The notes: generated by a model from the sequence alone, not told the origin. DNA of 64,000 nucleotides from a virus (IMGVR_UViG_2648501839_000008), one strand, 5' to 3'; positions 1,780-60,053 are shown, numbered from the stretch's first letter. Program-made: numbers and translations.

Positions 1780-1800
1780 GTAGGTAGTTACTTACTTATC
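1780..1800 (-). promoter_or_regulatory. Class-B palindromic site (TAAGTAAGTA..TACTTACTTA family)
   Basis: gtaggtagttacttacttatc immediately upstream of the gene starting at 1776. Confidence 0.45.
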
Positions 1801-1884
1801 ACAATGAGCTGATGATAGCGATTGGTGGCAGTTTTTGGAAGTGGAAACGGAAGGGAGTTGTTCTGGTGGGTATCTTTTGAAAGA

Positions 1885-1939
1885 CCTGCTTCCGTATATT
1901 TAATAAGTTACTTATTATTTATATATATACAGAAACAGG
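1885..1939. repeat. 55-bp AT-rich palindrome, copy 1 (near-identical to 35506-35560)
   Basis: cctgcttccgtatatttaataagttacttattatttatatatatacagaaacagg; outer arms CCTGCTTC/GAAGCAGG-like, directly 3' of the KAP NTPase gene. Confidence 0.7.
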
Positions 1940-1949
1940 TCATGAATAC

Positions 1950-3644
1950 TTAATTATTAAGCAATCTGCTCACACGTAGTTTGTTAAGACTTGATCTAGA
2001 GGCCAGTTTCGTTAATGCACCTATTGCTTTATTCGTGATTTTTTGCTGTTCTTCTGTTAGTTCTTGCATACTTTTGAATCTGAGCAACCCCTTTCTCACT
2101 AAATCCAAAGCATCCTGATTGCGGGATAGTATCCACTTTAAATAATCATCTTCAGAGAAACTGTTAAGATATGCTATGTCACTATGATTAAATTTGCCTT
2201 CAATTATTTTGTATAAAACATTCTCTAAATTAGTCTCTTCAGGCTTCTTATCCATCAATTTTTTTTGAATTAGCAGACCTAACTTTTCGTTACCAAATAT
2301 CTCTACATACAAATTCCGAAAAGCAGTATAAGCATCATCTTGGCTAACAAAGGCATCTGCATATGCCTCTATATAACTATCACAATCAATCTCCAATCTA
2401 TTTAAGATATCAATCAAGCCTATGAAGTGAGCAACAGGTATGTGTGAAAGATTGTCGTTAATTACACATTTTATCTTAGAAATAAACTCAGATTCATTGT
2501 CCTTGAATGAGTCACTAAAAATATCCCAAACATTGTTAACATCACATAAAGCCTTGTGTTCTTTATATTGTTTATTTTTTTCTTCTATTATACCTCGAAT
2601 ATTGCTTTCAGTAGAAAGATAACCATTCTTGAGATAAAAATCTATGTCATCATCGAAAGCAATTTCCGCTCGTTCATAAATAACATCAAGACTATTAATA
2701 AATGAATATACAGAATCATCCTTTTTATCATCTAACATGTAATCAAATACATGTATGTTTTTAATTGATTCTTTAAACAAGGCATAATCAACACCTGGAA
2801 CACCAGAATAGTAAACCACTGAAAACAGAACCAATCTATTGATAAAACTTTCTCTAACCTTATCCTCTGCCAAGCTTAGCTCATTCCTAAGATTAACCAG
2901 AGATGTTTTTATTTTATTTAATATACGGATATTTTTAATGCCTAAGTCATTTGCTAAGACTTTTAACAAAAGAAAATCAGAATCAGTTTCATAAAAAACT
3001 TTACGTAAGTTCTTCTCAGGCGTAGGATCGTATTTTATTTCGACATCAATTACTTTTTCTCTGTACTCTAAAAACTGTTTTTTTGCAGTTTCATCATGTA
3101 AATTATCTTCATTTAAAATTAGAACAACTTTGCAACCTTTTCTTCTTGCTAATTCATCAATTACCCCCATAATTTCTTTAACTTCTAGCGAATTACCTTT
3201 TCTTTCAACATCATCAATACAAACCAAATAATTATTAACAAATTTATACTCAAGAGATGACAGCAGGTTATCTGTTTTGAACCCAAAAAAATCGTTCTTT
3301 CCGAAATGTATTAAAAATTTTGACAAGGAGTTGTATTTCAACCATCCCCAAAACCCATTTCTATAACGAATCATAGTTCGATCCGTTTCAGATAAAATTA
3401 GTTCTTTATATTTCTTTTCATTAATTGGTGTGGCACAATGATAAAGAGCTTTTTTAATATCACCAATAGAGTTAACCCCAAACAAAGAAACATACGAATA
3501 TGCATTAAAATCTAATCCTTCAGAATGCTTAGTATAAAAACTATTCCAATAATGAGTTTTACCAACGCCCCAATCTCCTTTTATGACGGCAACCCGATGA
3601 TCTGAAACTAGAAAATTTTTTAGAAATGATTCTATCGATTCCAT
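1950..3644 (-). CDS. KAP-family P-loop NTPase (candidate defence or abortive-infection protein), AT-rich cargo gene
   Basis: N-terminal Walker A VIKGDWGVGKTH, Walker B-like LVCIDDVERKG about 140 aa later, long helical C-terminal region; AT-rich codon usage unlike neighbours; probable ATG at 3644 with AAAGGA RBS (track start 3653 is TTG). Confidence 0.55.
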   Translation of the reverse strand: MESIESFLKNFLVSDHRVAVIKGDWGVGKTHYWNSFYTKHSEGLDFNAYSYVSLFGVNSIGDIKKALYHCATPINEKKYKELILSETDRTMIRYRNGFWGWLKYNSLSKFLIHFGKNDFFGFKTDNLLSSLEYKFVNNYLVCIDDVERKGNSLEVKEIMGVIDELARRKGCKVVLILNEDNLHDETAKKQFLEYREKVIDVEIKYDPTPEKNLRKVFYETDSDFLLLKVLANDLGIKNIRILNKIKTSLVNLRNELSLAEDKVRESFINRLVLFSVVYYSGVPGVDYALFKESIKNIHVFDYMLDDKKDDSVYSFINSLDVIYERAEIAFDDDIDFYLKNGYLSTESNIRGIIEEKNKQYKEHKALCDVNNVWDIFSDSFKDNESEFISKIKCVINDNLSHIPVAHFIGLIDILNRLEIDCDSYIEAYADAFVSQDDAYTAFRNLYVEIFGNEKLGLLIQKKLMDKKPEETNLENVLYKIIEGKFNHSDIAYLNSFSEDDYLKWILSRNQDALDLVRKGLLRFKSMQELTEEQQKITNKAIGALTKLASRSSLNKLRVSRLLNN

Positions 3645-3695
3645 TAGTATCAATCCTTTAATTCATATATTGGGCGTAACAAACGCCCAATATAA

Positions 3696-4055
3696 TCAAC
3701 CTTTCTTCATCAACTCTCGTTTAATTTCATCGGTACGCATCGTAACGTCGGCAGCTGTGATCGCCTCGTTAAGCTTCACGATGTCCTCGATTTCCTGCGG
3801 TGACTTCTCTGCCAGATGGAAAATGGCTGCTCGAATCACGTCAGAACGAGTGAACTTCTCGAAGCGAGGGATGAACTTCATCATCTCCAGCAGTTCGAAG
3901 TATTCGTCTTCCAGTGACATTGTGCGGCTTTTAATTTTCTCTTTGCCACGAGTCGGGCGTCCCTGTGGTCTGACTGGTTGGCGCAAAGGAGTTGTGTTCT
4001 TAGCCGGTGCATCAGGCTCTTTGCGCTTTGCTAGGTCACCCATTTTCATGGACAT
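3696..4055 (-). CDS. ParG-like ribbon-helix-helix partition protein
   Basis: 119 aa, basic disordered N-terminus plus C-terminal RHH-like segment; start overlaps parA stop (TAATG coupling). Confidence 0.45.
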   Translation of the reverse strand: MSMKMGDLAKRKEPDAPAKNTTPLRQPVRPQGRPTRGKEKIKSRTMSLEDEYFELLEMMKFIPRFEKFTRSDVIRAAIFHLAEKSPQEIEDIVKLNEAITAADVTMRTDEIKRELMKKG

Positions 4056-7643: not shown

Positions 7644-7693
7644 GAAAAGTCAAATCGGGATGGCGGATTTATATCACATTTCACCTTCTTGTT

Positions 7694-7714
7694 GTAGGTG
7701 TGTACTTACTTATC
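7694..7714 (-). promoter_or_regulatory. Class-B palindromic site
   Basis: gtaggtgtgtacttacttatc about 50 nt upstream of the gene starting at 7643. Confidence 0.45.
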
Positions 7715-13017: not shown

Positions 13018-13061
13018 GTTGAATATGCTCCTTGATTTGGTGGGCTATCCTTGCCCACCAT

Positions 13062-13080
13062 TAAGTAAGTACATACTTAT
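13062..13080 (-). promoter_or_regulatory. Class-B palindromic site
   Basis: taagtaagtacatacttat between the J-like gene and the tail fiber gene. Confidence 0.45.
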
Positions 13081-13110
13081 TTTTACCGATATAAATATTT
13101 TTTTCTACCA

Positions 13111-18443: not shown

Positions 18444-19228
18444 GTCTCATCTCCCTTGAGCAAGTCTCTGTGACGCAAGTGATGCGTCGTATGTTTCTGA
18501 TACATTCCGCCGTAATAAGCACGACAACTAAGGCGGTCGATCTGGTGATGAAGAATCATTCCATCGCCGATATAAACCGCGCAGTGGTCAGGCATTTTCC
18601 CGTATTGGATAAAGAAGATGTCCCCACGTTGAGGCTCTGTTCCGGGCGCAAGCCGTACCAATCCTTCGTTTCGGTAGTTCTGGTCGAGAATGTCGTTATC
18701 GCCGGTGTACCACGATGGAATATGCAGGTGTGCGTTCGGGTTTAGTTCGACGTTAAACTCACGCTTCAAATAGTCCCGACACAACATCCAGCAATCGAAT
18801 ACGCCAAATACATACGGTCTGCCCAGGTATGGCATTTCGAAACCATCAGGTGTGATCACATTCATCTCGCTAAAATGGAAAGGGGCATCTCCCTCAACAT
18901 TCTTGCGAATAGCCAGAATCATCCACGGAACTTCCGTCGCTTCGCAGCCTGCACGATCGGCATCAGATGCTTCTGCTGATTCATCAGTATGTGAATGCCA
19001 GATTGCGATAACATCACCCGCATCCTCTGCCGCCATAATGTCGTCAACGTGCATTACAAAAGTGTTCTGCGGGTTCTCCGAAACATTCCGCGCTTCCATA
19101 AAGCGATATTTGTCGCCATTAGTTCTAACCAGAAAGCCACACGCTTCATTAGGGTAGCGATTTATGGCGCAGAGATAGATTTGCTGCATAACGTCAGAGC
19201 CAAGCTCAGGGATTGCTTTATTACCCAT
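18431..19228 (-). CDS. Tail assembly protein K-like (MPN/JAB plus NlpC/P60 domains)
   Basis: Lambda gpK-like architecture and position; probable ATG at 19228 (track start is TTG). Confidence 0.7.
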   Translation of the reverse strand: MGNKAIPELGSDVMQQIYLCAINRYPNEACGFLVRTNGDKYRFMEARNVSENPQNTFVMHVDDIMAAEDAGDVIAIWHSHTDESAEASDADRAGCEATEVPWMILAIRKNVEGDAPFHFSEMNVITPDGFEMPYLGRPYVFGVFDCWMLCRDYLKREFNVELNPNAHLHIPSWYTGDNDILDQNYRNEGLVRLAPGTEPQRGDIFFIQYGKMPDHCAVYIGDGMILHHQIDRLSCRAYYGGMYQKHTTHHLRHRDLLKGDETCLS

Positions 19229-19919
19229 ACCGCGTAGCTCCAATAAATCCGCCAAAATGGATCACACCGTCGGCAAAATAATTCCGACGCGCATTACAGG
19301 CGTCATAACGTTTTGTGCAGTAATCCGCACCAGACATAGACGTCTGCTGGTTATTTTTGTCGAAATATGGACCGGTATATCCGCATTCTGGCCCTCGGTA
19401 TTTCCACGGGCAGGTGTTTTTAATGATCTGACGATACGGCAGTTGCACCCCCATCAAATCGAACACACTGGACAATTCAAACTCGACAACCTGATGAGTT
19501 TCGAGAGTTTTCTGTTCGATAAACCACATTTCATCAGGGAAATGTTGGTTTGGATCTGCTGTTGGGTTGCCGTCTTTAAAATTAACGGCATCGAGGAAGC
19601 GAGCCAGCGTCATCTTGCGAATAATGCGGCAGCCAACAAGATCGTCGTTCGCCTGAACTTCCGCAGAGACGGTTCCGGCAAAGTTCGATACCTGAATTTT
19701 TGGACGTGGCAACGTTCCCTGGCCCGTTTTGTCAAAGCCTGATGCTTTGATTGGCCACGGCTCGTATGTCACCCCTTGCCAGACGACCGGTTGCATCAGT
19801 TCGTTTGTTCCGGCGTGGAAGAATAGCTTCCCCCCTGAAGTTGTGTTCGACATATCCAGTACGAACAACTCAATGAGTGCAGAGGGAGATAAGCTCTGAA
19901 TATCAGCTTTAATTCCCAT
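19221..19919 (-). CDS. Minor tail protein L-like
   Basis: Shares with lambda gpL the ...ARFLDAVNF... and C-terminal Cys cluster (CPWKYRGPECGY...C...C); start at internal ATG with AAGGA RBS. Confidence 0.8.
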   Translation of the reverse strand: MGIKADIQSLSPSALIELFVLDMSNTTSGGKLFFHAGTNELMQPVVWQGVTYEPWPIKASGFDKTGQGTLPRPKIQVSNFAGTVSAEVQANDDLVGCRIIRKMTLARFLDAVNFKDGNPTADPNQHFPDEMWFIEQKTLETHQVVEFELSSVFDLMGVQLPYRQIIKNTCPWKYRGPECGYTGPYFDKNNQQTSMSGADYCTKRYDACNARRNYFADGVIHFGGFIGATRYG

Positions 19920-19981
19920 TGTTTCATCCTTGAAATAAGTAGGCGCTAACATCCTGTCAGCGCCACAATGATAGTAAATTA

Positions 19982-20004
19982 GTACTTACTTATCCAGATA
20001 CTTA
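19982..20004 (-). promoter_or_regulatory. Class-B palindromic site
   Basis: agtaaattagtacttacttatcc overlapping the M stop, upstream of L. Confidence 0.45.
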
Positions 20005-25678: not shown

Positions 25679-26425
25679 TTAACCTGCGGAGTTAATCGTT
25701 ACTGACTTAGTAGCCTTCTTAGAACCGCTATTGCTGGTGAAGGAGATGTTTGCAGTACCCTGCGCCACACCGCGCACAAGACCCGTTTGATCTACCGTGG
25801 CCTTTTCCTGGTCTTCGGATTCCCAAACACCGGTTTTGTCTGCGGCATCAGCTGGAGTGATTTCGGCTGTCAGTTGCACAGTTTCTCCAGCTTTTACGGT
25901 TGGAGATTCCGGTGCGATCGACACAGTTTTTACCGGTTTAGGGCCGCTCATTCTTCCCAGAACGCCTTCGTCATCAGGGTATGCGCTGAACTGAACAGAG
26001 AACACACGAACATCATCAGACTGGTAGGTCATAGTGAAGTTGCCCGCGGTTGCCGCTTTCGGGATGGTCAACACATAGTCGGTGGTGTCCTGCGGAGTCA
26101 GAACCAGCTCCTTCGCCACATCAATCAGGTTAACGCCCTGTGCAGATGTGATCGTGACAGAGTTGTCATCTTCGCTCAGAGTAGAACCAGGCATCAGGTC
26201 AACCATGTTTTGGAGTACAGACTCAGCCAGAGGCGCGGTGATGGTAATGTTGCGCCCCTGAACTAATTCGGAAATTACGGTCTGCCCCAACTGATCGACG
26301 GTGACTTTCAGCGTTTCAGTGGCTACTTCAACCTGAACACCACCTTTGGTGTAACCCAAATCCACACCACCAAACGACACCTTACAGGCACCAAGTTTGA
26401 TGTTTTTTACATGGGTATTAGACAT
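25679..26425 (-). CDS. Major tail protein with C-terminal Ig-like (Big_2-type) domain
   Basis: Position; C-terminal ...TVKAGETVQLTAEITPADAADKTGVWESEDQEKATVDQTGLVRGV... Ig-like domain; probable ATG at 26425 with AAAGGAG RBS. Confidence 0.6.
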   Translation of the reverse strand: MSNTHVKNIKLGACKVSFGGVDLGYTKGGVQVEVATETLKVTVDQLGQTVISELVQGRNITITAPLAESVLQNMVDLMPGSTLSEDDNSVTITSAQGVNLIDVAKELVLTPQDTTDYVLTIPKAATAGNFTMTYQSDDVRVFSVQFSAYPDDEGVLGRMSGPKPVKTVSIAPESPTVKAGETVQLTAEITPADAADKTGVWESEDQEKATVDQTGLVRGVAQGTANISFTSNSGSKKATKSVTINSAG

Positions 26426-26473
26426 TGATGGAAAACTCCTTTTTCCGTTAATTCTACGCATTCATTGCGCTAA

Positions 26474-26493
26474 TAGTAAGTATATACTTACTA
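26474..26493 (-). promoter_or_regulatory. Class-B palindromic site
   Basis: tagtaagtatatacttacta upstream of the major tail protein gene. Confidence 0.45.
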
Positions 26494-26499
26494 ATTGAG

Positions 26500-26856
26500 T
26501 TAATTCAATAAATAGCCAGCAAATTCAACAGGAATGCCTGCTTCTATTAATGCCCCATCATTTTTGGGATAAATGATTGGCATCGCCATCGGTCGTACAA
26601 GTCGAAAATAAACACCACCAGATTCCGTTTCCTCTACTGGAAACATCTCAATGATTTTATTGGCTTTCTCAACCGTCGTAGTAATTGACGAACCACGCAC
26701 AATGATTGTGAATGATTCGAGATAAAAGCCCTGTAGCTCATGATCGATGCTGATACCGGTATTTGGGTTAATAAGCAGGACGCCAGATTTCACATTGGCA
26801 GGCAAGTAGTGACAGAAAATGTCAGTCCCGACCGTGCCAATCTTTGCCTTCTGCAT
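26500..26856 (-). CDS. Tail terminator candidate (gpU-position)
   Basis: Gene order only; start trimmed to an internal ATG to avoid overlap. Confidence 0.35.
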   Translation of the reverse strand: MQKAKIGTVGTDIFCHYLPANVKSGVLLINPNTGISIDHELQGFYLESFTIIVRGSSITTTVEKANKIIEMFPVEETESGGVYFRLVRPMAMPIIYPKNDGALIEAGIPVEFAGYLLN

Positions 26857-26884
26857 CAAACTTGCAAACGCTTCAATAAACACA

Positions 26885-27358
26885 TTAACCTCTCGTAAAT
26901 CCGGCTTTTCTGGCAGCCTCAAGAATCGCTTCTGAGAACTGCTTCTCGCTAATTTCCACCGCTCTTTCCAGAAAGTGTGGCCCAACACGGGGTTTAACAC
27001 CGGCAATTGGTGGGTTTGTCACGTTCTTCATTCGAGAAAGATAACCGAGTCGGTATTTACCCAGCTCCATGTACTTAGCATAGTCACCTACTTCTACGCC
27101 CGGATGCCCCTGACGTGGTTTTGCTCCAGACACAGAAAGCTCAATACGCAGCCCTGAATAACCTTCTTTAATCACCCTGGCAAAGATGGCTGTCTCCAGA
27201 GATCCGGTTTCCAGCGGGGCCATTGCACGGCTGAGACGCTCAACCAAACGCGCCAGCTTTTCCATGTCCCGAATAAGATATCGCTTAAATGCTTTCTGGC
27301 TGTTGTTGAGTCTATTCCCCGCACGTTTGAACTGATGCGCATCGTATTTCAGACCCAT
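26885..27358 (-). CDS. Tail completion / HK97 gp10-like candidate
   Basis: Gene order and size (157 aa). Confidence 0.4.
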   Translation of the reverse strand: MGLKYDAHQFKRAGNRLNNSQKAFKRYLIRDMEKLARLVERLSRAMAPLETGSLETAIFARVIKEGYSGLRIELSVSGAKPRQGHPGVEVGDYAKYMELGKYRLGYLSRMKNVTNPPIAGVKPRVGPHFLERAVEISEKQFSEAILEAARKAGFTRG

Positions 27359-27693
27359 ATATTCGCCCCTACTTCAAGATGCCCAGGTCTTCCTCGTAGC
27401 CCCCAGCGGCGATGAACACTGGACACCTTTAATTTTTGACCTTCAAGGATCAGTACATCATCAAGTTGTACAGCCGCTTCCAAAGGGACAACTAACACAG
27501 CATCAAACAGCTCCAGACTCGCCTTACCACGACTACCAGAGCTATCAGCACGAACTGACGATTTCTCATTACTCTGTTCGAACTTAACCACGCCGACATT
27601 CGTCTTCCTGACGAATTGTAATTGCGCCTCACCGTAAACGTTCTTTGCGCCAAAGCGGTAGATCGCAATTTCTGTTTGCCATGAAATATTCAT
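27349..27693 (-). CDS. Head-tail adaptor candidate
   Basis: Gene order; start trimmed to an internal ATG. Confidence 0.35.
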   Translation of the reverse strand: MNISWQTEIAIYRFGAKNVYGEAQLQFVRKTNVGVVKFEQSNEKSSVRADSSGSRGKASLELFDAVLVVPLEAAVQLDDVLILEGQKLKVSSVHRRWGLRGRPGHLEVGANIWV

Positions 27694-27772
27694 GCTCTCT
27701 CCCTGTTGTTGTCGGTCGCTCTCATTACTGGCCAAAAACCCTTTAGACCAAAAGTAAATAATGCGACTGGCG

Positions 27773-28606
27773 TTACGCACGGCGAACAATCATACGGTTG
27801 TTGATGTAACTGACCAGCAAGCGCCAGGTACTACGAGCCACATGCACGTTTGCAGCTTTACCGGTACGGTACATGTTGGTTGTTTCACCGATGGACTCTG
27901 ACAAAATGCCATCCTCTCGTGCTGCGGCTACATCATTGCCATTTGCGATCTCACACGCTTCGTTGACAACGGCAAGCATCAACGCTTCTTTGAAGTAGTC
28001 AGGGAACTCTTCAAACTTCTCCTGCGTCATCTTTTCCCAATCGACTAAATCATGCCGGTACGCTCCATCTGCTCCCCACGGAATGTCATACACATTCAGC
28101 ATATTTTGAGGGCGATCGTATCGGTCAAAGTCGATACGTAGAATTTTGCGGATTGAGAACGGTAAAGTTTTAATTCGTCTGGTAGCCTCAATGAGACGCT
28201 TGCGCATTAAGCCTTCACCATCCGACAGCAAAGTGTCCCCATTCAGCATATCGATCGCCTGCATTTGAGCATCAGCGACAGTTGCAAACGACTGTTCTGG
28301 TATCGACAGTTCAAAACTATTCAGCAGAACATACATTTGCCGCTCTTCATGCGTCAGACCCGATGCAACAGCCTTCACAATGACGTACCGCAGATCTCGC
28401 TCTTTCACAGAGAGCTGGTTATATTCAGCCGACACGACAACCGGAATCGACATTTGACCGCTGGTAATTTCTAGCGGCTCGCCATCAACGAGAATAGCCC
28501 CGGTGCTGTCCTTTACTGTGTAGGTGGCAGATTCGATATCCAGCACGTTGAAGGCAAATGAAAGAGAAACAGCTTCACCGCTACGATACGAGTCGATCTG
28601 CGCCAT
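27773..28606 (-). CDS. Hypothetical structural protein (277 aa)
   Basis: ORF track; lies within the head-tail joining block. Confidence 0.4.
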   Translation of the reverse strand: MAQIDSYRSGEAVSLSFAFNVLDIESATYTVKDSTGAILVDGEPLEITSGQMSIPVVVSAEYNQLSVKERDLRYVIVKAVASGLTHEERQMYVLLNSFELSIPEQSFATVADAQMQAIDMLNGDTLLSDGEGLMRKRLIEATRRIKTLPFSIRKILRIDFDRYDRPQNMLNVYDIPWGADGAYRHDLVDWEKMTQEKFEEFPDYFKEALMLAVVNEACEIANGNDVAAAREDGILSESIGETTNMYRTGKAANVHVARSTWRLLVSYINNRMIVRRA

Positions 28607-29040: not shown

Positions 29041-29084
29041 AACGCTTTCTCTCCACTTGGGCGGCGAAAGCCGCCCAATATCGG

Positions 29085-33463: not shown

Positions 33464-33475
33464 TTGAATAACCTT

Positions 33476-33497: not shown

Positions 33498-34746
33498 AAC
33501 CACCAAGAATAACACGGTTTTTGACTGGATACCTACGATGTACTGGATAGCCCAATGCGTCTGCACTATGCTCAATGCCACCTGTCTTATCCATATCTCG
33601 TGTTCCAGGCTTGTAGATGACTTTTTCCAGTGAATCAATCAAATGCTTGCACTTCGGATCGATATACAACCGGATATCTCCAGATGCGGTCATCAGCATT
33701 CGGTTAACAGCATTAACACGATCCGCAATTGGCGGGTGCTTTTTCGAATAATCGACACGTAAGAATCCCTTCTCTTTGAATATGTCGACGTCAGACTCCC
33801 CGCGAGCATGTTGGCGATAAGCACCTGCCGGATCTGGAAATACCGTTATCTGTGATTTCCAGCGCCAGAAGCGTCTCTCAAGCTCATCACAAACCTCTGC
33901 CGTGTTAGAGGAAAAGAGCACCAATTCATCAATTGCCCATAGCTCACCATTTGGCTGAGGTTGCAAAATTACTGAAGACATCGGGTCAATGTTGAAGTCC
34001 TGCCCTACCCATATAGGCAACCGAGGGTTGAACTGAAGCGGTTTTACATGCACGTTACGATCGAACGGGTAGTAAACGCGCCCGGACATGTTCTCAAAGC
34101 TCGCCAGGTACTCCTGAGCGAACGATTTCGGGTCCATATCGTTCTTAGCAGCTTCAATTTCCGCCGTAGGCACAAACGGAGAATCGGCAGTTACAAACTG
34201 CCAGCTCTTCCACTGTCCCTTTCTTTGCAGCTCTACGTTCTGGCCTATAGTCCACAGTTTGTGAAATTCCGAGAAACCTTTTGGCGTACCAATGATAAGT
34301 GCACCGCCGCGTGTCGATGAAAGAGTAGGTCGTAACACCTTGTACCAGGTGTCAGCCTTCATATCCTGAAATTCATCAAGCACTACAAAATGCAACGCTA
34401 CGCCGCGCAGAGTGTCAGGCTTATCAGCACCTTTGAGGGCGATCTCCGAACCGTTCTTCAACACGATTGTCATCGTGGTGTCGTTCTTTTTCCTAACCCA
34501 CTTACGAGGCAGAACTTCCTGTAGATCGTCCCACAAAATCTGGCGAGCCATCTGGTAAGTAGGAGCGACATACCAGACCCTTTGCTTTTTTTCCTTTGCC
34601 GCCGCACGAATAATAGTGGAGATCGACAACCGGGATTTTCCCCAGCGTCGACCAGCACAAACAACTTTAAATCGATGCGGAGACTGGAAGACTTTCATCT
34701 GTCCAGAATGCAGTTGCACAAGACTGAGCGAGGACGGGATTGCCAT
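33490..34746 (-). CDS. Terminase large subunit
   Basis: Walker A-like CAGRRWGKS, Walker B VVLDEF, C-terminal nuclease-like half; 418 aa. Confidence 0.85.
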   Translation of the reverse strand: MAIPSSLSLVQLHSGQMKVFQSPHRFKVVCAGRRWGKSRLSISTIIRAAAKEKKQRVWYVAPTYQMARQILWDDLQEVLPRKWVRKKNDTTMTIVLKNGSEIALKGADKPDTLRGVALHFVVLDEFQDMKADTWYKVLRPTLSSTRGGALIIGTPKGFSEFHKLWTIGQNVELQRKGQWKSWQFVTADSPFVPTAEIEAAKNDMDPKSFAQEYLASFENMSGRVYYPFDRNVHVKPLQFNPRLPIWVGQDFNIDPMSSVILQPQPNGELWAIDELVLFSSNTAEVCDELERRFWRWKSQITVFPDPAGAYRQHARGESDVDIFKEKGFLRVDYSKKHPPIADRVNAVNRMLMTASGDIRLYIDPKCKHLIDSLEKVIYKPGTRDMDKTGGIEHSADALGYPVHRRYPVKNRVILGGSR

Positions 34747-35475: not shown

Positions 35476-35505
35476 TCTGGGCATGTCTTATTAAGCCTGC
35501 TTCCG

Positions 35506-35560
35506 TATATATTTAATAAGTTACTTATTATTTATATATACAGAAGCAGGTCTTTAAATA
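35506..35560. repeat. 55-bp AT-rich palindrome, copy 2
   Basis: cctgcttccgtatatatttaataagttacttattatttatatatacagaagcagg, directly 3' of the wHTH gene. Confidence 0.7.
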
Positions 35561-36741: not shown

Positions 36742-37403
36742 GAATGGACCTCATCGTGACTACCATTGTGATATTCCACCTTCACGCGTTCTTTGTAGTG
36801 CTTGGTGATCTGCATATCCGGGCGCAGCGCGTTCTTCAGGTCTTCGTGAGTCGTCGCCACCATTACCGTCGCACCAACCTTTCGAGCGGCACGCTGGAGG
36901 TTAGACGCCACAACCTGAGCGGTTACACGGTCGAGAACAGCGCCGAACTCGTCAGCAGCCCACACTTTAGCGCCTGACTCAATCAGTTTGGCAATCTTGA
37001 GACGATATTTCTGGCCGTCTGACATTTCAGAAGGCTTGCGAACAAACAGATATGCATCGTTCAGACCAGCCATAGATAACAACCCAAGCGCATCACTGGT
37101 CGTTTTGCCCAACTGATCGATGACGTTAACCTCATTATCGAAGGTAAAATCATCGATGGAGGCTACAGACAGCCCTTCATCCTTCATCTGTCGTTGCAAC
37201 TCGCGCAGCACAACGGATTTGCCGGAACCGGATTGGCCGGTGATGTACACCACATCGCCCTGCTTCACTTCCAGCTCCAGATTGTCGTAAAGCGTCCACT
37301 CTTTTTCGTCCAGGCCAAGCCCGAACGACTCAGCGATTTCCAACGTGCGCGTGGTTTTATTTACGCGTGTCTGAAACGATACGTTGATGATGTATTTGCT
37401 CAT
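36738..37403 (-). CDS. ABC-type ATPase (stand-alone nucleotide-binding domain)
   Basis: Walker A GQSGSGKS, signature-like SDGQKYR, Walker B VWAADEF, H-loop TTHE; 221 aa. Confidence 0.65.
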   Translation of the reverse strand: MSKYIINVSFQTRVNKTTRTLEIAESFGLGLDEKEWTLYDNLELEVKQGDVVYITGQSGSGKSVVLRELQRQMKDEGLSVASIDDFTFDNEVNVIDQLGKTTSDALGLLSMAGLNDAYLFVRKPSEMSDGQKYRLKIAKLIESGAKVWAADEFGAVLDRVTAQVVASNLQRAARKVGATVMVATTHEDLKNALRPDMQITKHYKERVKVEYHNGSHDEVHS

Positions 37404-38068
37404 GCAGCCATCTCCCCGGAAGAGATCTTCTCCGCATATGCCACAAATGCGTCTACCCCGCTTTCTCCCGTCATTTCTTCCATGTGGGCAAGCAAATCAC
37501 CAACAACAATGGCAGAGCCAGCAGGGAGCGTTTTAAAGCCCAATACGTCGACAACACGTACTTCTTCCGCTGCAACTTCACGACTGATCTCGGTGTGTTC
37601 ATCCTTCTGTCGTTTAGTTTCTTCGCCAAGATCGATAACTAGCGAGTCGGTGTCCATTTCTTCTGTCATACTGCCAACGAGAACATTCAACTCACGCTCT
37701 TCAAAGCCGAAAACCTCGATATCGTCCAGAACAAGCGACTCAAGCTCTTTCTGTAGCTTAATTGCATCGTAATCAATGCTGGCAAGTCGGTTATCTTCAA
37801 GGCGCTTCGCACGAACCTCGTCATCACTGAGATCATCGCGAACAATAACCGGTACGCGCTCAAGTCCAGCAAAAATTGCAGCCTCACGGCGGCCGTGGCC
37901 AGTAATAATTACGTCGTTCTTATCGACCGTAATTGGCTGGTCAAATCCGCGCTTTTTAATGGCTGCGGCTAGATCTCGGATCTGCTGTTCATCATGCTTT
38001 TTGGCATTCATCTCATAGGGAATAAGATCTGCCGGGTCGCGATATACGATTTCAAACTTTTTGGTCAT
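37400..38068 (-). CDS. ParB-like nuclease-domain protein 1
   Basis: ParB-box-like ITGHGRREAA; start trimmed to ATG 38066-38068, overlapping the upstream stop (TAATG). Confidence 0.6.
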   Translation of the reverse strand: MTKKFEIVYRDPADLIPYEMNAKKHDEQQIRDLAAAIKKRGFDQPITVDKNDVIITGHGRREAAIFAGLERVPVIVRDDLSDDEVRAKRLEDNRLASIDYDAIKLQKELESLVLDDIEVFGFEERELNVLVGSMTEEMDTDSLVIDLGEETKRQKDEHTEISREVAAEEVRVVDVLGFKTLPAGSAIVVGDLLAHMEEMTGESGVDAFVAYAEKISSGEMAA

Positions 38069-38748
38069 TACATACGCTCCTTGTAGTAGTCGACCAGCCA
38101 CACCAGAGCCTCACCAGCGTTCTCCATTTCATTACCGGTGTTAATAGCCTGCTCTTTGATGATGTTTTTTATGGTTTCTGCAACACGATCTGACGCATCG
38201 AAAGTTACTTTGAAGCGCATGGTCTGATGTTCCGCACCCACACGTTCGGTTTTCTCTCGTTTGTCGGTATCGACAGGCTCATCACTACCACGAGACAACG
38301 CCTCCAGTGCTTCAAGGTCGATTGCCGCCTCTTTTGCTAAAACCATCGAGATTTCGTCGTCATACGGGGCGATTTCAGACAGTTGATAGTCAAGTTCTGA
38401 CTGAATTTCTTCAATGAAGCGTTGCAATGCGATTTGGTCGTCTTCACCGTATCGCTCGTTGTCCACCAGTGACATCTGTTTAGCTACGACATCGCTAATT
38501 TTGCCCACAGAAAGCACCGGAACCGTTGAAATTCCTTGCTCAATAGCAGCACGCCAGCGATGTTCGCCGCCGAGGATTTCAAAAAATCCATCTTCAAGTT
38601 CACGAGCCAAAATTGGCTTAAAAAAGCCCAATTTTTCGATAGAACCTTTCAGTTTTTCAAAATTCTGCGCACCAACCGAATTGGTGTTCCAGGTATTCGG
38701 GCGAAGGTTGGCAACATCAACCTGCAAAATCGTGATTTTTACATCCAT
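38068..38748 (-). CDS. ParB-like nuclease-domain protein 2
   Basis: ParB-box-like EILGGEHRWRAA; 226 aa. Confidence 0.6.
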   Translation of the reverse strand: MDVKITILQVDVANLRPNTWNTNSVGAQNFEKLKGSIEKLGFFKPILARELEDGFFEILGGEHRWRAAIEQGISTVPVLSVGKISDVVAKQMSLVDNERYGEDDQIALQRFIEEIQSELDYQLSEIAPYDDEISMVLAKEAAIDLEALEALSRGSDEPVDTDKREKTERVGAEHQTMRFKVTFDASDRVAETIKNIIKEQAINTGNEMENAGEALVWLVDYYKERM

Positions 38749-38767
38749 TTTATTGCTACAATCTACT

Positions 38768-38791
38768 AGGTATTCACTTACTTATTATAAT
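38768..38791. promoter_or_regulatory. Class-B-like site in the divergent region between the ParB operon and the helicase module
   Basis: aggtattcacttacttattataat; contains a perfect TATAAT on the plus strand. Confidence 0.4.
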
Positions 38792-41166: not shown

Positions 41167-41691
41167 ATGACAACCAAAGATATTACCTACGGTATCCAAG
41201 CTGAACTCTGGCCGCGAGATTACACTAACGTTGAAAAACTACTGATGTTCTGGCGCAGAGAACAAATTCCTGTAAGGGTCACTCTCGAAGATGGCCAGGC
41301 GTTTTGCATGTACGTTTATGGCCTCATGCCATCTCGTAACAAAGTTGACCTTTGCCCAGCCCCTTTTGACAAAGAAAATCGTATAAGGCTCCCACTTGAA
41401 CGCATTAGTACAATTGAATCAGGTGTGGTTGACAGTATCGCTCACGATTTCAAAGGTCGACTAACAGTTCACCCTGATTATGTCGATAATCGGCCATCAC
41501 GCCGCGATTTTTTTGCAATTTGCAACCAAGCCTACAAAGCAAACAAATCTATAAGGGTGTACATGGCGGATGGCCGTGAAATTGAGGGGGTGTCAGCAGG
41601 CGCAGATGCTTGTCAGGTTACACTACGTGTCGAGAACGGTAGAAAAATAGTTGTTTTGTTCGATTGGGTTGAACGAATTTTGCCTTTTTGA
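41167..41691 (+). CDS. Hypothetical protein (174 aa)
   Basis: ORF track trimmed to the ATG at 41167 after the upstream stop. Confidence 0.4.
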   Translation: MTTKDITYGIQAELWPRDYTNVEKLLMFWRREQIPVRVTLEDGQAFCMYVYGLMPSRNKVDLCPAPFDKENRIRLPLERISTIESGVVDSIAHDFKGRLTVHPDYVDNRPSRRDFFAICNQAYKANKSIRVYMADGREIEGVSAGADACQVTLRVENGRKIVVLFDWVERILPF

Positions 41692-45549: not shown

Positions 45550-45591
45550 TTCACTCTCCGTAGTGTATTGGTTATTTTTATATTCTATGAT

Positions 45592-45613
45592 CGTAAGTAT
45601 GTACTTACAATAC
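45592..45613 (-). promoter_or_regulatory. Class-B palindromic site preceded by a terminator hairpin (45615-45641)
   Basis: cgtaagtatgtacttacaatac; adjacent GCCCCG...CGGGGC hairpin with a T-run on the minus strand. Confidence 0.4.
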
Positions 45614-45675
45614 AAAAAAGCCCCGTAAGGATGGCGGGGCTGTCGTACTGTCGACTAATTACCACTTGCACATTA

Positions 45676-49845: not shown

Positions 49846-51879
49846 TTACTTAACCTGGTGGCCAGGTTTAGCACCAGCATCCGGGCTTAACAGGAAGATA
49901 TCTTTCCCGCCGGGGCCAGCAGCCATCACCATACCTTCGGAGATGCCGAAGCGCATCTTACGCGGAGCCAGGTTAGCCACCATAATGGTGTGACGACCAA
50001 TCAGTGCCTGTGGGTCTGGATAAGCAGAACGGATGCCTGAGAAGACATTGCGTTTTTCACCGCCGAGATCCAGCGTCAGGCGCAGCAGTTTGTCAGAACC
50101 TTCAACAAACTCTGCGTTTTCGATCAGTGCCACGCGCAGGTCAACTTTGGCAAAGTCGTCAAAGGTGATGGTTTCCTGAATCGGGTCGTCTGCCAGCGGG
50201 CCAGTAACTGGCGCGGCAGTAGCTTTCACTTCTTCTTTAGACGCTTCCACCAATGCTTCCACCTGTTTCATGTCGATACGGTTATACAGTGCTTTGAACG
50301 GATTCACTTTATGGCCCAGCAGCGGTTGCTGGATGCCATCCCAGGTCAGTTCCGTATTCAGGAATGCTTCCGCACGTTCTGTCAGTTTCGGCAGTACCGG
50401 TTTCAGGTAAGTCATCAGCACGCGGAACAGGTTGATGCCCATTGAGCAAATCGCCTGCAGGTCAGCATCGCGACCTTCCTGTTTTGCGACTACCCAAGGA
50501 GCCTGCTCGTCGACATAGCGGTTAGCCAGGTCAGCCAGTGCCATGATTTCACGGATAGCTTTACCAAATTCGCGGCTTTCCCACGCTTCACCAATCACTT
50601 CAGCGGCATCAGTGAAGGTTTTGTACAACTGCGGGTCAGCCAGCTCGCTTGCCAGCACACCGTCAAAACGCTTATTGATAAAGCCAGCGTTACGGGACGC
50701 CAGGTTAACCACTTTGTTCACGATATCGGCATTCACACGCTGAACGAAATCCTCCAGGTTGAGATCGATATCATCAATGCGCGAAGAGAGTTTCGCAGTG
50801 TAGTAGTAACGCAGGCTGTCAGCGTCAAAATGATTCAACCAGGTGCTGGCTTTAATAAAGGTGCCGCGAGACTTGGACATCTTCGCGCCGTTCACCGTCA
50901 CATAGCCGTGAACAAACAGGTTGGTCGGCTTGCGGAAGTTGCTGCCTTCCAGCATGGCAGGCCAGAACAGGCTGTGGAAGTAAACGATATCTTTACCGAT
51001 GAAGTGGTACAGCTCGGCGGTGGAGTCTTTCTTCCAGTATTCATCGAAGCTGGTAGTGTCGCCGCGCTTGTCGCACAGATTCTTGAAGGAACCCATGTAG
51101 CCAATCGGTGCGTCCAGCCAGACGTAGAAATATTTACCCGGCGCGTTCGGAATTTCAAAACCGAAGTAAGGTGCGTCGCGGGAGATATCCCACTGTTGCA
51201 GACCAGATTCAAACCACTCCTGCATTTTGTTTGCCACCTGCTCCTGCAACGCACCGCTGCGGGTCCATGCCTGCAACATTTCGCTGAAAGAGGGCAGATC
51301 AAAGAAGAAGTGTTCAGAATCACGCATTACCGGGGTAGCACCAGAAACCACCGATTTCGGCTCGATCAGTTCAGTCGGGCTGTAGGTCGCGCCGCAAACT
51401 TCACAGTTATCGCCGTATTGATCTGGCGCTTTACATTTCGGGCAGGTGCCTTTCACAAAACGATCCGGCAGGAACATGCCTTTTTCCGGGTCGTACAACT
51501 GAGAGATAGTGCGATTTTTAATAAAACCGTTCTCTTTCAGGCGAGTATAGATAAGCTCAGACAACTGACGGTTCTCTTCGCTGTGCGTCGAGTGATAGTT
51601 GTCATAGCTGATGTTAAAGCCTGCGAAATCAGTCTGGTGTTCCTGACTCATTTCGCCAATCATCTGCTCCGGTGTGATACCAAGTTGCTGTGCTTTCAGC
51701 ATGATCGGCGTACCGTGGGCATCGTCGGCACAGATGAAATTAACCTCGTGGCCGCGCATTCGCTGGTAACGAACCCAGACATCAGCCTGGATGTGCTCCA
51801 GCATATGGCCGAGGTGGATTGAGCCGTTAGCGTACGGCAGCGCGCACGTCACCAGAATTTTCTTCGCGACTTGGGTCAT
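49846..51879 (-). CDS. metG: Methionyl-tRNA synthetase
   Basis: 677-aa translation from [26 protein letters not shown] (HIGH-type motif) through KMSKS to the C-terminal tRNA-binding domain; enterobacterial MetRS; true ATG at 51877-51879 (track ORF extended upstream). Confidence 0.95.
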
Positions 51880-52036: not shown

Positions 52037-53137
52037 ATGAGCGAGTCCAAATCGCCGGATGCCCTGAGAGCAATGGTAGCCGGTACGCTGGCTAATTTTC
52101 AGCACCCAACCCTGAAACACAACCTGACTACGCTTAAAGCGTTACACCATGTTGCGTTGATGGATGACACACTGCATGTCGAACTAATCATGCCTTTCGT
52201 GTGGAATAAGCCTTTTGAAGACCTGAAAGAGCAATGTAGTGGTGATCTGCTCCGTATCACTGGCGCAAAGGCTATTGACTGGAAGCTGTCGTACAACATT
52301 GCCACGCTTAAGCGCGTCAAAAACCAACCAGGCATTAATGGTGTTAAGAATATTATCGCCGTAAGCTCAGGCAAGGGCGGTGTAGGCAAATCGTCCACAG
52401 CAGTAAACTTGGCACTGGCTTTGGCTGCTGAAGGTGCGAAAGTTGGTATTTTGGATGCCGATATCTATGGTCCATCAATTCCAACCATGCTGGGCGCGGA
52501 AAACCAACGTCCAACCTCACCTGACGGTACTCACATGGCACCTATCATGTCTCATGGCCTGGCAACCAACTCTATTGGTTATCTGGTCACCGACGACAAT
52601 GCAATGGTGTGGCGTGGACCGATGGCCAGCAAGGCGCTGATGCAGATGTTGCAGGAAACTCTATGGCCTGATCTGGACTATCTCGTTCTCGATATGCCGC
52701 CGGGCACTGGTGATATTCAGTTGACGCTGGCGCAGAACATTCCTGTAACTGGTGCGGTTGTGGTAACTACGCCGCAAGACATCGCGCTGATCGATGCGAA
52801 GAAAGGCATTGTGATGTTCGAAAAAGTCGAAGTGCCGGTACTAGGTATCGTCGAAAACATGAGTGTGCATATTTGCAGTAACTGCGGTCATCACGAGCCA
52901 ATTTTTGGCACCGGTGGCGCACAGAAACTGGCCGAGAAATACAACACGCAGTTGTTAGGCCAAATGCCACTTCATATCTCTCTTCGTGAAGATCTGGATA
53001 ACGGAACACCAACCGTTATTAGTCGTCCAGATAGCGAATTTACGGCTATTTATCGTGACCTCGCAGATCGCGTTGCTGCCCAAATGTATTGGCAAGGTGA
53101 AGTAATACCTGGCGAAATCGCATTCCGCGCAGTGTGA
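52037..53137 (+). CDS. apbC: Fe-S cluster carrier ATPase ApbC/Mrp
   Basis: Deviant Walker A SGKGGVGKSS, CxxC motif ...HICSNCGHH..., divergent from metG as in enterobacterial chromosomes; RBS AAGGAG. Confidence 0.9.
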   Translation: MSESKSPDALRAMVAGTLANFQHPTLKHNLTTLKALHHVALMDDTLHVELIMPFVWNKPFEDLKEQCSGDLLRITGAKAIDWKLSYNIATLKRVKNQPGINGVKNIIAVSSGKGGVGKSSTAVNLALALAAEGAKVGILDADIYGPSIPTMLGAENQRPTSPDGTHMAPIMSHGLATNSIGYLVTDDNAMVWRGPMASKALMQMLQETLWPDLDYLVLDMPPGTGDIQLTLAQNIPVTGAVVVTTPQDIALIDAKKGIVMFEKVEVPVLGIVENMSVHICSNCGHHEPIFGTGGAQKLAEKYNTQLLGQMPLHISLREDLDNGTPTVISRPDSEFTAIYRDLADRVAAQMYWQGEVIPGEIAFRAV

Positions 53138-53174: not shown

Positions 53175-53564
53175 CTACATCACAGGACAATCATCAAACT
53201 CGCCACTTCTTGCGTCGTTGATAATGTGAGTGATCACACCAAACACGGCATTGCTGCCCGTGCATCCATCATCATCCTTTGGCAATGCTTCCTTCTTACC
53301 AGTTCTTAAATCCTCCAGATGCTGACGTGGATACTTCCGGTATCTTTTTACGCGATATTCCCCATCCAGAGCACATACAAGAAGAGATCCATCAACAGGA
53401 GTCAGTGAGGAATCGACCACCAGCAATGCACCCTGCAATATTCCCTCACGATGATGACTATCAGCCGCCCTCATGAAGTAGGTCGCTGAAGGATGTCTAA
53501 TTATCTGCTGATCAAGAGAAATACGGCTCTCAGCATAATCCGCCGCAGGAGAAGGGAAGCCCAT
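53175..53564 (-). CDS. UmuD-like (LexA/S24 peptidase family) protein
   Basis: C-terminal domain aligns with the UmuD/LexA catalytic core (Ser in ...AADSHH..., Lys in ...RVKRYRK...); SOS box immediately upstream. Confidence 0.65.
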   Translation of the reverse strand: MGFPSPAADYAESRISLDQQIIRHPSATYFMRAADSHHREGILQGALLVVDSSLTPVDGSLLVCALDGEYRVKRYRKYPRQHLEDLRTGKKEALPKDDDGCTGSNAVFGVITHIINDARSGEFDDCPVM

Positions 53565-53580: not shown

Positions 53581-53600
53581 TACTGTATATGCATACAGTA
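53581..53600. promoter_or_regulatory. LexA (SOS) box
   Basis: TACTGTATATGCATACAGTA = CTGT-N8-ACAG consensus, about 17 nt upstream of the UmuD-like start. Confidence 0.75.
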
Positions 53601-53894
53601 TATGTTGAAGCTATATATTTTTGAACTCTATCTCTTAAAAAAGATGTTAATAAGATGCTAACTATTGAAAGGCATAAATATATACAATTCCAACAAACGT
53701 TATTTTTAACAAATTTTTACTTCCCATTGACTTTCCCAGACTCCTTGTCTGAACTAATGTCCGCGGAAACCACTTTTTCCTTTACGAGTTATCCACAAAG
53801 TTATGCACTTGCACATAGTCTCTATAAATCCTATCTTAATTCGCAAGACACTGATGTTGCGGTATTGTGGGTACATTTGGTTAAAAACGGACAT

Positions 53895-58786: not shown

Positions 58787-58795
58787 TCTTAACTC

Positions 58796-58854
58796 CGTTG
58801 TTTTCTAGTTGTGGTTATTTTCACAAATAAGAAAAGGTAGAAAACAATTTATTT
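58796..58854 (-). promoter_or_regulatory. Class-A sites upstream of the nine-gene early operon
   Basis: ccgttgttttct + gttgtggttattttcac + gaaaacaatttattt. Confidence 0.5.
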
Positions 58855-58905
58855 AAGGCCACAACTTATGGCCTTTATTTATTCATGCCGAAGGATTTGT
58901 AGCGT

Positions 58906-59286
58906 CTAATTGCCGGATAAAATGGGGTGAGGTGCTTGCCAGTAGGCTCCACCGGTCCATGTGAACCCCATGCGAATAAGAGTGTTTATTGCGGCTTTGG
59001 TAGACTCCGATTCGACACTGGCTTTTCGAAACTCTTGAACCTCTTTCGCCAACTTGTATGTAATTGTGCAGGGGACGATTGCAGCCCAGCCTTTCTCATG
59101 ACTGTTAATGACCATCTGGATGTGACCATCCAGAATAGGTTGATTAGGCATGTTATTGAAAATGTCTGCCTGTTTTTGAATGTGAAGAAAAAGCCTTGCC
59201 AGCTCCATTTGCTCACTACGAGACAAGGGATTATCAAGAGGGCTTTTTGCAAAAGCGGCTATACGCTGTGCGTCAATGCCAAACAT
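58906..59286 (-). CDS. Hypothetical protein (126 aa)
   Basis: ORF track. Confidence 0.35.
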   Translation of the reverse strand: MFGIDAQRIAAFAKSPLDNPLSRSEQMELARLFLHIQKQADIFNNMPNQPILDGHIQMVINSHEKGWAAIVPCTITYKLAKEVQEFRKASVESESTKAAINTLIRMGFTWTGGAYWQAPHPILSGN

Positions 59287-59990
59287 CAGCGCACCTCACC
59301 ATCTTTATGGCTGGAGTTAACTTCCGCCATTAAATGTCTGACGTAATCGACAAGAGAGCCACCTGGTGGAATCTGGCATTCCTCAACTAACTGGAAGTAG
59401 ATATCCGCTGCATTACGTGTATTGCTACCCGCACATATTCTTTCTTCCCGAAGTGCATGAAGCTCGTTGATCAAACGGTCACACTCTCCGTTACGCTGAT
59501 CCACAACGGCCTCAAGCTCTGCGACGCGTTCACCTGGCGTCTTACCTTCTTTGCGTTGGATGGTAACGACGAAATCGCCAATTGCAGAGACGTTGTAATC
59601 CAGCTCAAGGTAGTTTTTGGCACCGCTGCGGACGAACTCACCCGCGAACATGGTGGCGAACATCGCAGAGGCCACTTCGCCGTTGAAAAGTGACTCAAGA
59701 TCTAACGGAGTCCCGGCAGCAAGAGCCTCTTTTGCTGTATCCATTGCATCCATGAACCGATCAAACTCACTAGCGCGCTTTTCCAGGTCTTTCCATTGCT
59801 CGCTCCAACGTTTGGCAACGAAGTCTATGAATGTTTTCGCGGATTCATCAAAATTCCCCTCAAACTTAACGATGCCTTTATCAATAATGATCTGGCCTAC
59901 CGCATCCTCTGCATAACCTTTCAATGTAAACTTGAAAGGAAAATCAGAATGGCCTGTGACGTTAAAATGCTCTAACTGGAGGTTGTTCAT
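59286..59990 (-). CDS. Hypothetical protein (234 aa)
   Basis: ORF track. Confidence 0.35.
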   Translation of the reverse strand: MNNLQLEHFNVTGHSDFPFKFTLKGYAEDAVGQIIIDKGIVKFEGNFDESAKTFIDFVAKRWSEQWKDLEKRASEFDRFMDAMDTAKEALAAGTPLDLESLFNGEVASAMFATMFAGEFVRSGAKNYLELDYNVSAIGDFVVTIQRKEGKTPGERVAELEAVVDQRNGECDRLINELHALREERICAGSNTRNAADIYFQLVEECQIPPGGSLVDYVRHLMAEVNSSHKDGEVR

Positions 59991-60032
59991 GTGTTTTTCT
60001 CTTATCGTTTAGCCACTAAATTCTTACACAAA

Positions 60033-60053
60033 TTAAGTAAGTATTTACCTATC
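60033..60053 (-). promoter_or_regulatory. Class-B palindromic site
   Basis: ttaagtaagtatttacctatc. Confidence 0.4.

Follow-up and report, generated by a model that had tools for sequence, protein, structure and literature searches.

A dispersed palindromic motif as a candidate operator over the lytic promoters of SSU5-like phage-plasmids

The DNA analyzed here is a stretch of 64,000 nucleotides (nt), or 64 kilobases (kb), of the viral sequence IMGVR_UViG_2648501839_000008, referred to below as the window, and our subject is a palindromic motif that recurs in it at 11 positions. The window belongs to an Escherichia coli phage-plasmid of the SSU5-like group. In its segment 26000-34000, the identity is 98.7% with Escherichia phage Cyrano (pLF82), 99.8% with plasmid pUTAK-6-1, 81% with Salmonella phage SSU5, and about 78% with Klebsiella phage-plasmids; matches to this segment occur in 761 plasmid records, whose sources are Klebsiella, Escherichia, Enterobacter, Yersinia, Salmonella, and others. 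The SSU5-like phage-plasmids include pHCM2 of S. Typhi, relatives of pMT1 of Y. pestis, and pLF82/Cyrano, together with hundreds of Klebsiella, Enterobacter, and E. coli plasmids; they are frequent in clinical Enterobacteriaceae, where they may carry resistance genes. In our literature searches, we did not find gene regulation in this group described, and nothing relevant was found on the motif sequence, on SSU5 late promoters, or on the host nucleoid-occlusion factor SlmA in connection with phage-plasmids.

The gene map of the window was obtained by mapping the Cyrano proteins onto it, and it covers only part of the Cyrano genome. Most genes are on the minus strand; the plus-strand genes are a block at about 38.8-43.4 kb and a single gene at 52037-53134. 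The order along the minus strand is accessory genes, a ParB-like operon, terminase, head, tail, lysis, ParA, and the start of a helicase operon. For comparison, we used three complete genomes, those of Cyrano, SSU5 (NC_018843), and the Klebsiella phage pJN2-26.

The original prediction, made from the sequence alone, was that at least 11 sites share a common motif. A single family, the TAAGTAAGTA/TACTTACTTA repeat, is indeed present at all 11, but it is more degenerate than was claimed: the literal pattern TAAGTAAGTA-N0-4-TACTTAC has 0 exact matches, and scans that tolerate mismatches were used in place of it. The consensus is a perfect palindrome whose two halves are GATAAGTAAGT and ACTTACTTATC, and the alignment of the 11 sites on the coding strand, ATAAGTAAGTA-c-TTAC-y-TA, corresponds to its left half and center. 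The motif is far above chance, both in the window and in the three full genomes. The 10-mer TAAGTAAGTA occurs 6 times in the window (0.05 expected), and the 22-base-pair (bp) palindrome GATAAGTAAGTACTTACTTATC is found with at most 6 mismatches at 8 positions (0.2 expected). With at most 7 mismatches, the full genomes have 33 positions in Cyrano (2.4 expected), 34 in SSU5 (0.6 expected), and 41 in pJN2-26 (1.1 expected). A weight matrix built from the 11 sites reports no additional strong site in the window. All 11 sites are oriented toward minus-strand genes, as had been noted, and 10 of them are intergenic in a window where non-coding DNA amounts to 8.5% (p = 2e-10).

All the sites are read on the minus strand, and we describe them in order of their coordinates. 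The first, at 1779-1800 (GATAAGTAAGTAACTACCTACC on the minus strand), is 11 nt upstream of where a CYRAN_31-like gene, the first of the helicase(-primase) operon, starts, and its orthologues are at 31295 in Cyrano, 33599 in SSU5, and 74982 in pJN2-26. The site at 7693-7714 is about 60 nt 5′ of the holin-endolysin-spanin genes. The one at 13060-13081, between the genes for tail protein J and the tail fiber, is followed on its 3′ side by a GC hairpin (13039-13059) and then by a ribosome-binding site and an ATG. Between the minor tail genes M and L, the site at 19973-19994 is embedded in a sigma-70-like promoter, TGGATA-17-TATCAT (19968-19996), after which there is another GC hairpin (19942-19964). 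The site at 26475-26496 precedes the major tail protein gene and overlaps the promoter TTGAAT-18-TATACT (26479-26508). A degenerate member of the family at 30046-30067 comes directly after the stop of the major capsid gene, and it is followed by an intrinsic terminator (30028-30044) and an Ig-like decoration gene; it is weak in the window, and its pJN2-26 orthologue is strong.

The site at 31966-31987 sits within the 3′ end of the portal gene, 99 nt before the gene for a DUF6651 (scaffold-like) protein, and it occupies the spacer and the -10 element of TTGAAA-17-TATGAT (31964-31992), the sigma-70-like promoter that ranks first in the window. The site at 33473-33494 overlaps the stop codon of the large terminase subunit gene, in the 26 nt that separate this gene from the portal gene, a position that is kept in three deeply diverged lineages. 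At 38765-38786, the motif lies in an 82-nt divergent region between a UvsW-like helicase gene on the plus strand, whose perfect TATAAT abuts the edge of the site, and the ParB-like operon on the minus strand. The site at 45592-45613 overlaps the promoter TTGTAA-17-TAGAAT (45582-45610), with a terminator hairpin (45614-45640) upstream on the minus strand and a CYRAN_107-like gene downstream. Finally, the site at 60032-60053 overlaps the stop codon of a DUF4942 gene, and 6 nt 3′ of it there is a conserved extended -10-like sequence, TGTAAGAAT, ahead of an Ead/Ea22-like gene.

Many of these details agree with what had been predicted. The neighbors named there (holin, tail fiber, L, major tail protein, decoration, scaffold, and portal genes) are the ones in the gene map, and sites 33473 and 60032 do overlap an upstream stop codon, while site 45592 does follow a terminator hairpin. 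Site 31966 is the one inside a gene, that of the portal. Of the 11 sites, 4 are outside the structural and lysis modules: two precede operons (helicase and ParB-like), and the other two precede a small hypothetical gene and the Ead/Ea22-like gene.

A second repeat family was observed at the ends of modules, consisting of long near-perfect hairpins (CCTGCTTCTGTATATA...TATATACGGAAGCAGG) at 1885-1941 and 35497-35550 on the minus strand of the window, with folding z-scores of -6.4 and -8.3, and at 31174, 78098, and 108356 in Cyrano. At their apex there is a mini-palindrome, AATAAGTAACTTATT, which looks like the outer arms of the 22-bp motif joined to each other. These hairpins are probably bidirectional terminators or insulators.

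Scans of full genomes find about 24 sites in Cyrano and about 25 in each of the complete relatives. Equally good Cyrano sites precede the SSB, RNR, ThyX, Dam, SbcD, and CobS-like genes and a tRNA cluster, and others are found elsewhere; about half of the full-genome sites come before genes for replication or nucleotide metabolism, and recombination operons are also preceded by sites. Conservation in related genomes had been proposed as a test of the motif, and it is clear: the sites are syntenic in SSU5 and pJN2-26, and orthologous 22-mers are 85% identical, compared with 49% in ungapped flanks at a distance of 9-30 nt (p about 1e-9 to 1e-10), which makes this a clear phylogenetic footprint. 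The signal extends to much larger distances. A syntenic relative from A. baumannii, plasmid pAYP-A2, whose proteins are 25-60% identical, shows 28 matches to TATTAGTAAGYRCTTACTAATA with up to 5 mismatches (0.15 expected), among them sites at the terminase/portal, scaffold/capsid, and ParB/helicase junctions. A third lineage, represented by a 103-kb IMG/VR contig, has the motif TTAAGTAAGTACTTACTTAA, again with a site between the terminase and portal genes. Across this supergroup, the 14-bp core AGTAAG-YR-CTTACT is constant, and the outer flanks differ by lineage, with the variants GATAA, TTAAG, and TATTA.

As a separate observation, metagenomic phages that are unrelated to SSU5 at the DNA level (GC fraction about 0.41) have a long (AAGT)3(ACTT)3 palindrome in a conserved context, seen at the IMG/VR loci L012, L014, L026, L046, L049, L057, L072, L080, and L083, and about 2 kb from it there is a second related palindrome, CCTAAGTAAGTAGTTATATAACTAACTACTTACTTACC.

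What kind of site is this? The information profile calculated from 72 sites in the three genomes is mirror-symmetric from about position -1 to 24, with peaks at ATA, at GTA, at the T and A on the two sides of the center, at TAC, and at TAT. At all 11 pairs of mirror positions, the observed pairing equals that expected for independent halves. As an example, positions 5 and 18 show A-T 19 times, A-C 16, G-T 12, and G-C 12 (Fisher p = 0.8), and in many window sites one of the two halves is degenerate. Halves that vary independently, in the absence of covariation between pairing positions, indicate a DNA site for a symmetric protein rather than an RNA hairpin. By these statistics, the motif is a dyad-symmetric protein-binding DNA site of about 20-26 bp.

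The position of the sites with respect to promoters is informative about the effect of such a protein. A simple weight matrix for -35/-10 pairs, run along the minus strand of the entire window, gives a score of at least 11 at only three positions (13.1, 11.5, and 11.4). All three overlap motif sites; in order of score, they are 31964-31992, 45582-45610, and 26479-26508. An independent promoter scan calls the first and the third. A fourth promoter that overlaps the motif (19968-19996) scores 9.1. The original prediction that the motif comes with no obvious -35/-10 pair is thus wrong for at least four sites, TTGAAA-17-TATGAT being the best example, and the same motif-overlapping promoters are conserved in relatives. 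Sigma-70-like matches in general are depleted in the head region at 26000-34000 (4 found versus 10.2 expected from shuffles), and 2 of these 4 are those that overlap motif sites.

The register between the motif and the promoter is not fixed. The center of the motif lies at about -12, -19.5, -22.5, or -27.5, and at about -30 where the conserved TGTAAGAAT follows, whereas at sites 1779, 33473, and 38765 the motif is just 3′ of a candidate -10 element. Given in motif coordinates, the best -10 elements start at -16, -5, 13, 19, 22, 27, 30, or 36, depending on the site. At the terminase/portal junction, the distance from the motif to the ATG is 10-16 nt, which leaves no room for a start site downstream of the motif. 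A register that varies, inside the core promoter and just after it, is the signature of a repressor operator, and it would not be tolerated by a promoter element or by the site of an activator.

We therefore favor, with moderate confidence, the reading in which the motif is a dispersed operator placed over host-type promoters, through which a phage repressor, likely a 128-amino-acid XRE protein, would keep the lytic operons silent. This reading draws on sequence statistics, comparative genomics, and published lysogen expression, from which we infer the identity of the binder and its repressive effect. A dimeric phage repressor bound at the motif would occlude RNA polymerase or block it just past the start site. 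The operators head the lytic units (replication, nucleotide metabolism, head, tail, lysis, and the ParB-like/terminase operon), and nearly the whole co-directional lytic array could in this way be held silent during the low-copy plasmid life of the element. If the repressor were lost or inactivated, for instance after DNA damage, every unit would open at the same time.

As the repressor, the most likely candidate is the 128-amino-acid XRE protein (WP_001282576.1; Cro/CI-type helix-turn-helix) encoded beside the integrase gene, CYRAN_45 in Cyrano. The protein has a weak HTH_19 match and is named an XRE-family regulator in the sources. Its AlphaFold model, of moderate confidence (predicted local distance difference test 76.5), has an N-terminal Cro/CI-XRE fold, and the structure matches, which are weak (E at least 6e-3) and speak for the fold class only, are to 434 Cro and repressor, SinR, C.AhdI, HigA, and Stl. 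The gene adjoins the integrase gene and diverges from a small cro-like gene. At about +1 of its promoter, TTTACA-16-TAATAT, 38 of 40 distinct variants have the core GTAAGCACTTAC, and the other 2 have ATAAGCACTTAC. In pUTAK-6-1, a copy of the repressor identical at 128 of 128 residues is found about 11.5 kb beyond the start of the window, with a core site upstream. Homologues are present in pJN2-26 (56% identity) and in the distant, motif-bearing Acinetobacter phage-plasmid (38%).

The expression of the Cyrano lysogen is consistent with this candidate. RNA sequencing found CYRAN_45, the putative master repressor, 10-fold above background, and the genes at least 5-fold above background are CYRAN_45, toxin-antitoxin genes, CYRAN_29/30, 40, 43, 81, 99, 102, 109, and 117 (PMC9928086). 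No operon with a strong motif site before it appears there; CYRAN_81, which is listed, sits behind a weak site. We detected no DNA-binding domain in the other lysogen-expressed proteins. One of these deserves a separate comment: the product of the plus-strand gene at 52037-53134, named "septum site-determining protein MinD" in Cyrano, is an Mrp/NUBPL-type P-loop ATPase (Pfam ParA PF10609, E = 2e-102) and not a Min-system protein.

SSU5 offers a comparison. At about 41.8-42.8 kb, this genome is without the integrase-repressor-cro block of about 4 kb that is present in Cyrano (39.1-43.1 kb), in pJN2-26, and in pUTAK-6-1, and it has kept the motif sites. SSU5 is described as virulent (PMC5427195). 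The missing block correlates with this virulence and would explain it.

Concerning induction, a cell holds 5.5 copies of the Cyrano plasmid, and ciprofloxacin induces it 39-fold (PMC9928086). In the window, at 53581-53600, we observe a near-consensus LexA box (TACTGTATATGCATACAGTA, 1 mismatch) that overlaps a sigma-70-like promoter (53597-53625) and lies just 5′ of a gene for a 129-amino-acid S24 peptidase, UmuD-like in appearance (53178-53564). This box is a possible SOS input for the ciprofloxacin-induced element.

By analogy, the closest system is the dispersed C1 operator regulon of the phage-plasmid P1. In P1, and by our reading here as well, a single immunity repressor silences a plasmid-prophage from operators that are scattered over the promoters of many separate operons, with one operator also in front of the repressor's own gene. 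There are differences. The P1 operators are asymmetric 17-mers and the repressor is of another family, whereas here we have a 20-22 bp palindrome and a small XRE candidate; and the P1 late genes are controlled indirectly, via the activator Lpa, whereas here the candidate operators come directly before the head, tail, and lysis modules. The Cro/CI pairs of the lambdoid phages, such as 434 and P22, resemble our candidate in the helix-turn-helix fold, in palindromic operators overlapping -35/-10 elements, and in a repressor gene, here probably under its own control, that diverges from a small cro-like gene. Loss of the repressor region makes such phages virulent, and in SSU5 its absence coincides with virulence. 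But the lambdoid operators are confined to the immunity region (OL/OR), and here there are about 25 copies over about 105 kb. A further difference is that the candidate repressor is without a RecA-cleavable peptidase domain, so that induction would need an antirepressor or some other route.

Several observations weigh against the phage-repressor reading. Seven window sites, 1779, 7693, 13060, and 33473 among them, have weak candidate promoters only. The candidate repressor gene is outside the window, and the site upstream of its Acinetobacter homologue is poor. Homologues of the XRE repressor were found only on SSU5-like elements, and thus unrelated phages provide no independent test of the pairing between repressor and operator. 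Moreover, SSU5 keeps well-preserved sites without a repressor, which implies either that the deletion is recent or that the sites are under a second constraint. Finally, the core of the motif matches the binding rule of the host protein SlmA, and the ParB-like operon is preceded by a site and encodes, in its first gene, a protein with a ParB/Noc-type DNA-binding region. These last two points lead to different binders, which have to be weighed in their own right. As for other host regulators, none of the operators of Fur, TrpR, AcrR, and others is known to match the motif.

The alternative that survives best, unlikely as we take it to be, is that the motif consists of binding sites for the host nucleoid-occlusion factor SlmA, present at 20-40 times the chromosomal density. 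Either segregation or lytic amplification would then be coupled to the inhibition of division, or SlmA would act as a co-repressor that is titrated by a rising copy number. SlmA belongs to the TetR family and binds as a dimer of dimers, and its DNA-bound form antagonizes FtsZ. The enterobacterial hosts of these elements have SlmA. Its consensus is GTGAGTACTCAC, with G, T, A, and G strongly preferred at positions 1, 2, 4, and 5, while any purine is accepted at position 3 (a change from G to A keeps a dissociation constant of about 60 nM) and any pyrimidine at position 6 (PMC3020112). The motif core GTAAGT-ACTTAC obeys this rule exactly. The likeness extends to the flanks: the 24-mer consensus oligonucleotide used in vitro, AAGTAAGTGAGCGCTCACTTACGT (PMC4423959), and the phage motif share the 18-mer TAAGTRAGYRCTYACTTA, so that in both the 12-bp core and the flanks the phage sites are like chromosomal SlmA sites. 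Matches to GTRAGYRCTYAC with at most 1 mismatch number 7 in the window (1.55 expected), 14 in Cyrano (1.75), 17 in SSU5 (2.35), and 18 in pJN2-26 (2.65). With up to 2 mismatches, the number that the validated sites SBS12 and SBS17 have, GTRAGYRCTYAC matches every one of the 11 window sites, none of them exactly. We also count in favor of a host binder that a tblastn search, using an E. coli SlmA sequence as the query, found no SlmA/TetR homologue encoded by the phage. SlmA can act on transcription, as it can repress a promoter bearing its site and activates one in Vibrio cholerae (PMC5519180), and a multicopy plasmid that carries SlmA sites blocks division once SlmA is supplied (PMC4117426).

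The same sites differ from those of SlmA in other respects. Over the 72 sites, position 3 of the core is A in 66, C in 3, T in 3, and G in none, although G is the base of the SlmA consensus; the absence of G suggests that the binder distinguishes A from G at this position. The flanking ATA and TAT, beyond the 12-mer, are conserved as strongly as the core itself. On the chromosome, there are 24-52 SlmA sites per 4.6 megabases, often with G at position 3, mostly in coding DNA and none in a promoter, whereas the phage sites occur about once per 4.5 kb, almost always between genes and in several cases in the core of a promoter. A constitutive host repressor on early promoters fits poorly with a virulent SSU5 that retains all of its sites. 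The same core is conserved also in the Acinetobacter relative, whose host may be one without SlmA. The roughly 25 candidate operators per genome might, at the same time as binding a phage repressor or instead of it, be high-affinity SlmA sites, and we give this a low probability.

If the SlmA match is functional, it would tie a mobile element directly to the control of host cell division. At about 5 copies per cell, the element would add more than 100 SlmA sites to the 24-52 mapped on the chromosome, and it might behave as nucleoid DNA over which there is no division, which would be a new principle of plasmid stability. Runaway lytic replication might produce abundant DNA-activated SlmA, and division would stop. 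A rise in copy number might also titrate SlmA away from promoters, which would amount to a replication-coupled switch.

Somewhat more doubtful is the possibility that the sites are parS- or OB-like loading sites for the ParB-family proteins of the phage itself, in the manner of KorB (RK2) or SopB (N15). Two genes with ParB_N domains, at 38071-38748 and 37403-38068 on the minus strand, are directly behind site 38765, an arrangement found in every lineage examined, and the proteins are conserved in the Acinetobacter and third lineages, both of which bear the motif. The first protein aligns with Spo0J (1vz0) residues 23-171, which we take to include the helix-turn-helix region that binds DNA, and with the N-terminal 100 residues or so of Noc. 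Palindromic sites dispersed at promoters are what KorB-OB and SopB would lead one to expect, since in those systems a ParB-family protein regulates many promoters through scattered palindromes. The motif is not known to resemble parS, OB, or Noc-binding sequences, which we count against this possibility. A difference from those systems is that the ParB-like genes here, CYRAN_119 and CYRAN_120, are located in the lytic array beside the terminase genes and are not among the genes expressed in the Cyrano lysogen, which makes their products poor candidates for the maintenance of silence. And SSU5 has the ParB-like genes, yet it is virulent.

The original prediction proposed a late promoter read by a phage-encoded factor, and one part of it stands: the motif belongs to control elements associated with promoters, and a phage protein is its most likely reader. 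That the motif itself would be a phage-specific late or middle promoter, or an activator site, we regard as quite improbable. The model for such a reading is given by the Lpa-dependent late promoters of P1, with an inverted repeat upstream of the -10 element, and there are points of agreement with it: the sites stand where gene modules begin, the palindrome reads TATCAT or TATTAT at its right edge, which is -10-like, and at some sites a 5′ stem-loop comes next, immediately ahead of the ribosome-binding site. The distant Acinetobacter relative even encodes a sigma-70-family factor, at 68800-69465 of pAYP-A2 (18800-19465 in our locus L086), between a CobS-like ATPase gene and dnaE. We found no homologue of this factor in the window or in SSU5-like genomes; homologues of Lpa were not searched for. 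The motif is not specific to late genes, as 4 of the 11 window sites are outside late modules, and the mirror symmetry, the varying register to the -10 element, the complete host-type -35/-10 pairs already present at the best sites, and the short motif-to-ATG distance at the terminase/portal junction all oppose it.

Last, an action of the palindrome in the transcript, as a hairpin processed by RNase III or RNase E (an RNA processing site had also been predicted) or as a translational operator, is extremely improbable and was rejected. In its favor are the intercistronic positions, sometimes abutting a ribosome-binding site, and the 8-10 bp AU-rich stem that an ideal sequence could form. Against it, the halves of the 72 sites pair across the dyad no more often than the base composition of each column would give by chance, and A-C mismatches make up 16 of the 72 combinations at positions 5/18; in many window sites one half is degenerate, and it is the sequence that is conserved and not the pairing.

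Two other genes in the window are worth recording. A full-length methionyl-tRNA synthetase homologue is encoded at 49849-51879 on the minus strand, with 99.9% identity to CYRAN_100. On the plus strand, at 41173-41688, there is a conserved 172-amino-acid homologue of FljA, the phase-1 flagellin repressor, also present in SSU5 and in the Klebsiella relative; the Cyrano copy matches Pfam Flag1_repress with E = 1e-80, and its C-terminus has a weak Hfq-like match.

Returning to the reading that we favor, a dispersed operator for a phage repressor, its consequences for SSU5-like phage-plasmids would be several. If it is true, these elements have a flat control circuit in which one repressor acts through a single type of operator placed before nearly every lytic operon, structural genes included. 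The motif sequence would then predict promoters and transcription units in SSU5-like elements, and the candidate master repressor would be a target to delete or titrate in order to cure or induce such plasmids. It would also give a simple account of the virulence of SSU5 itself.

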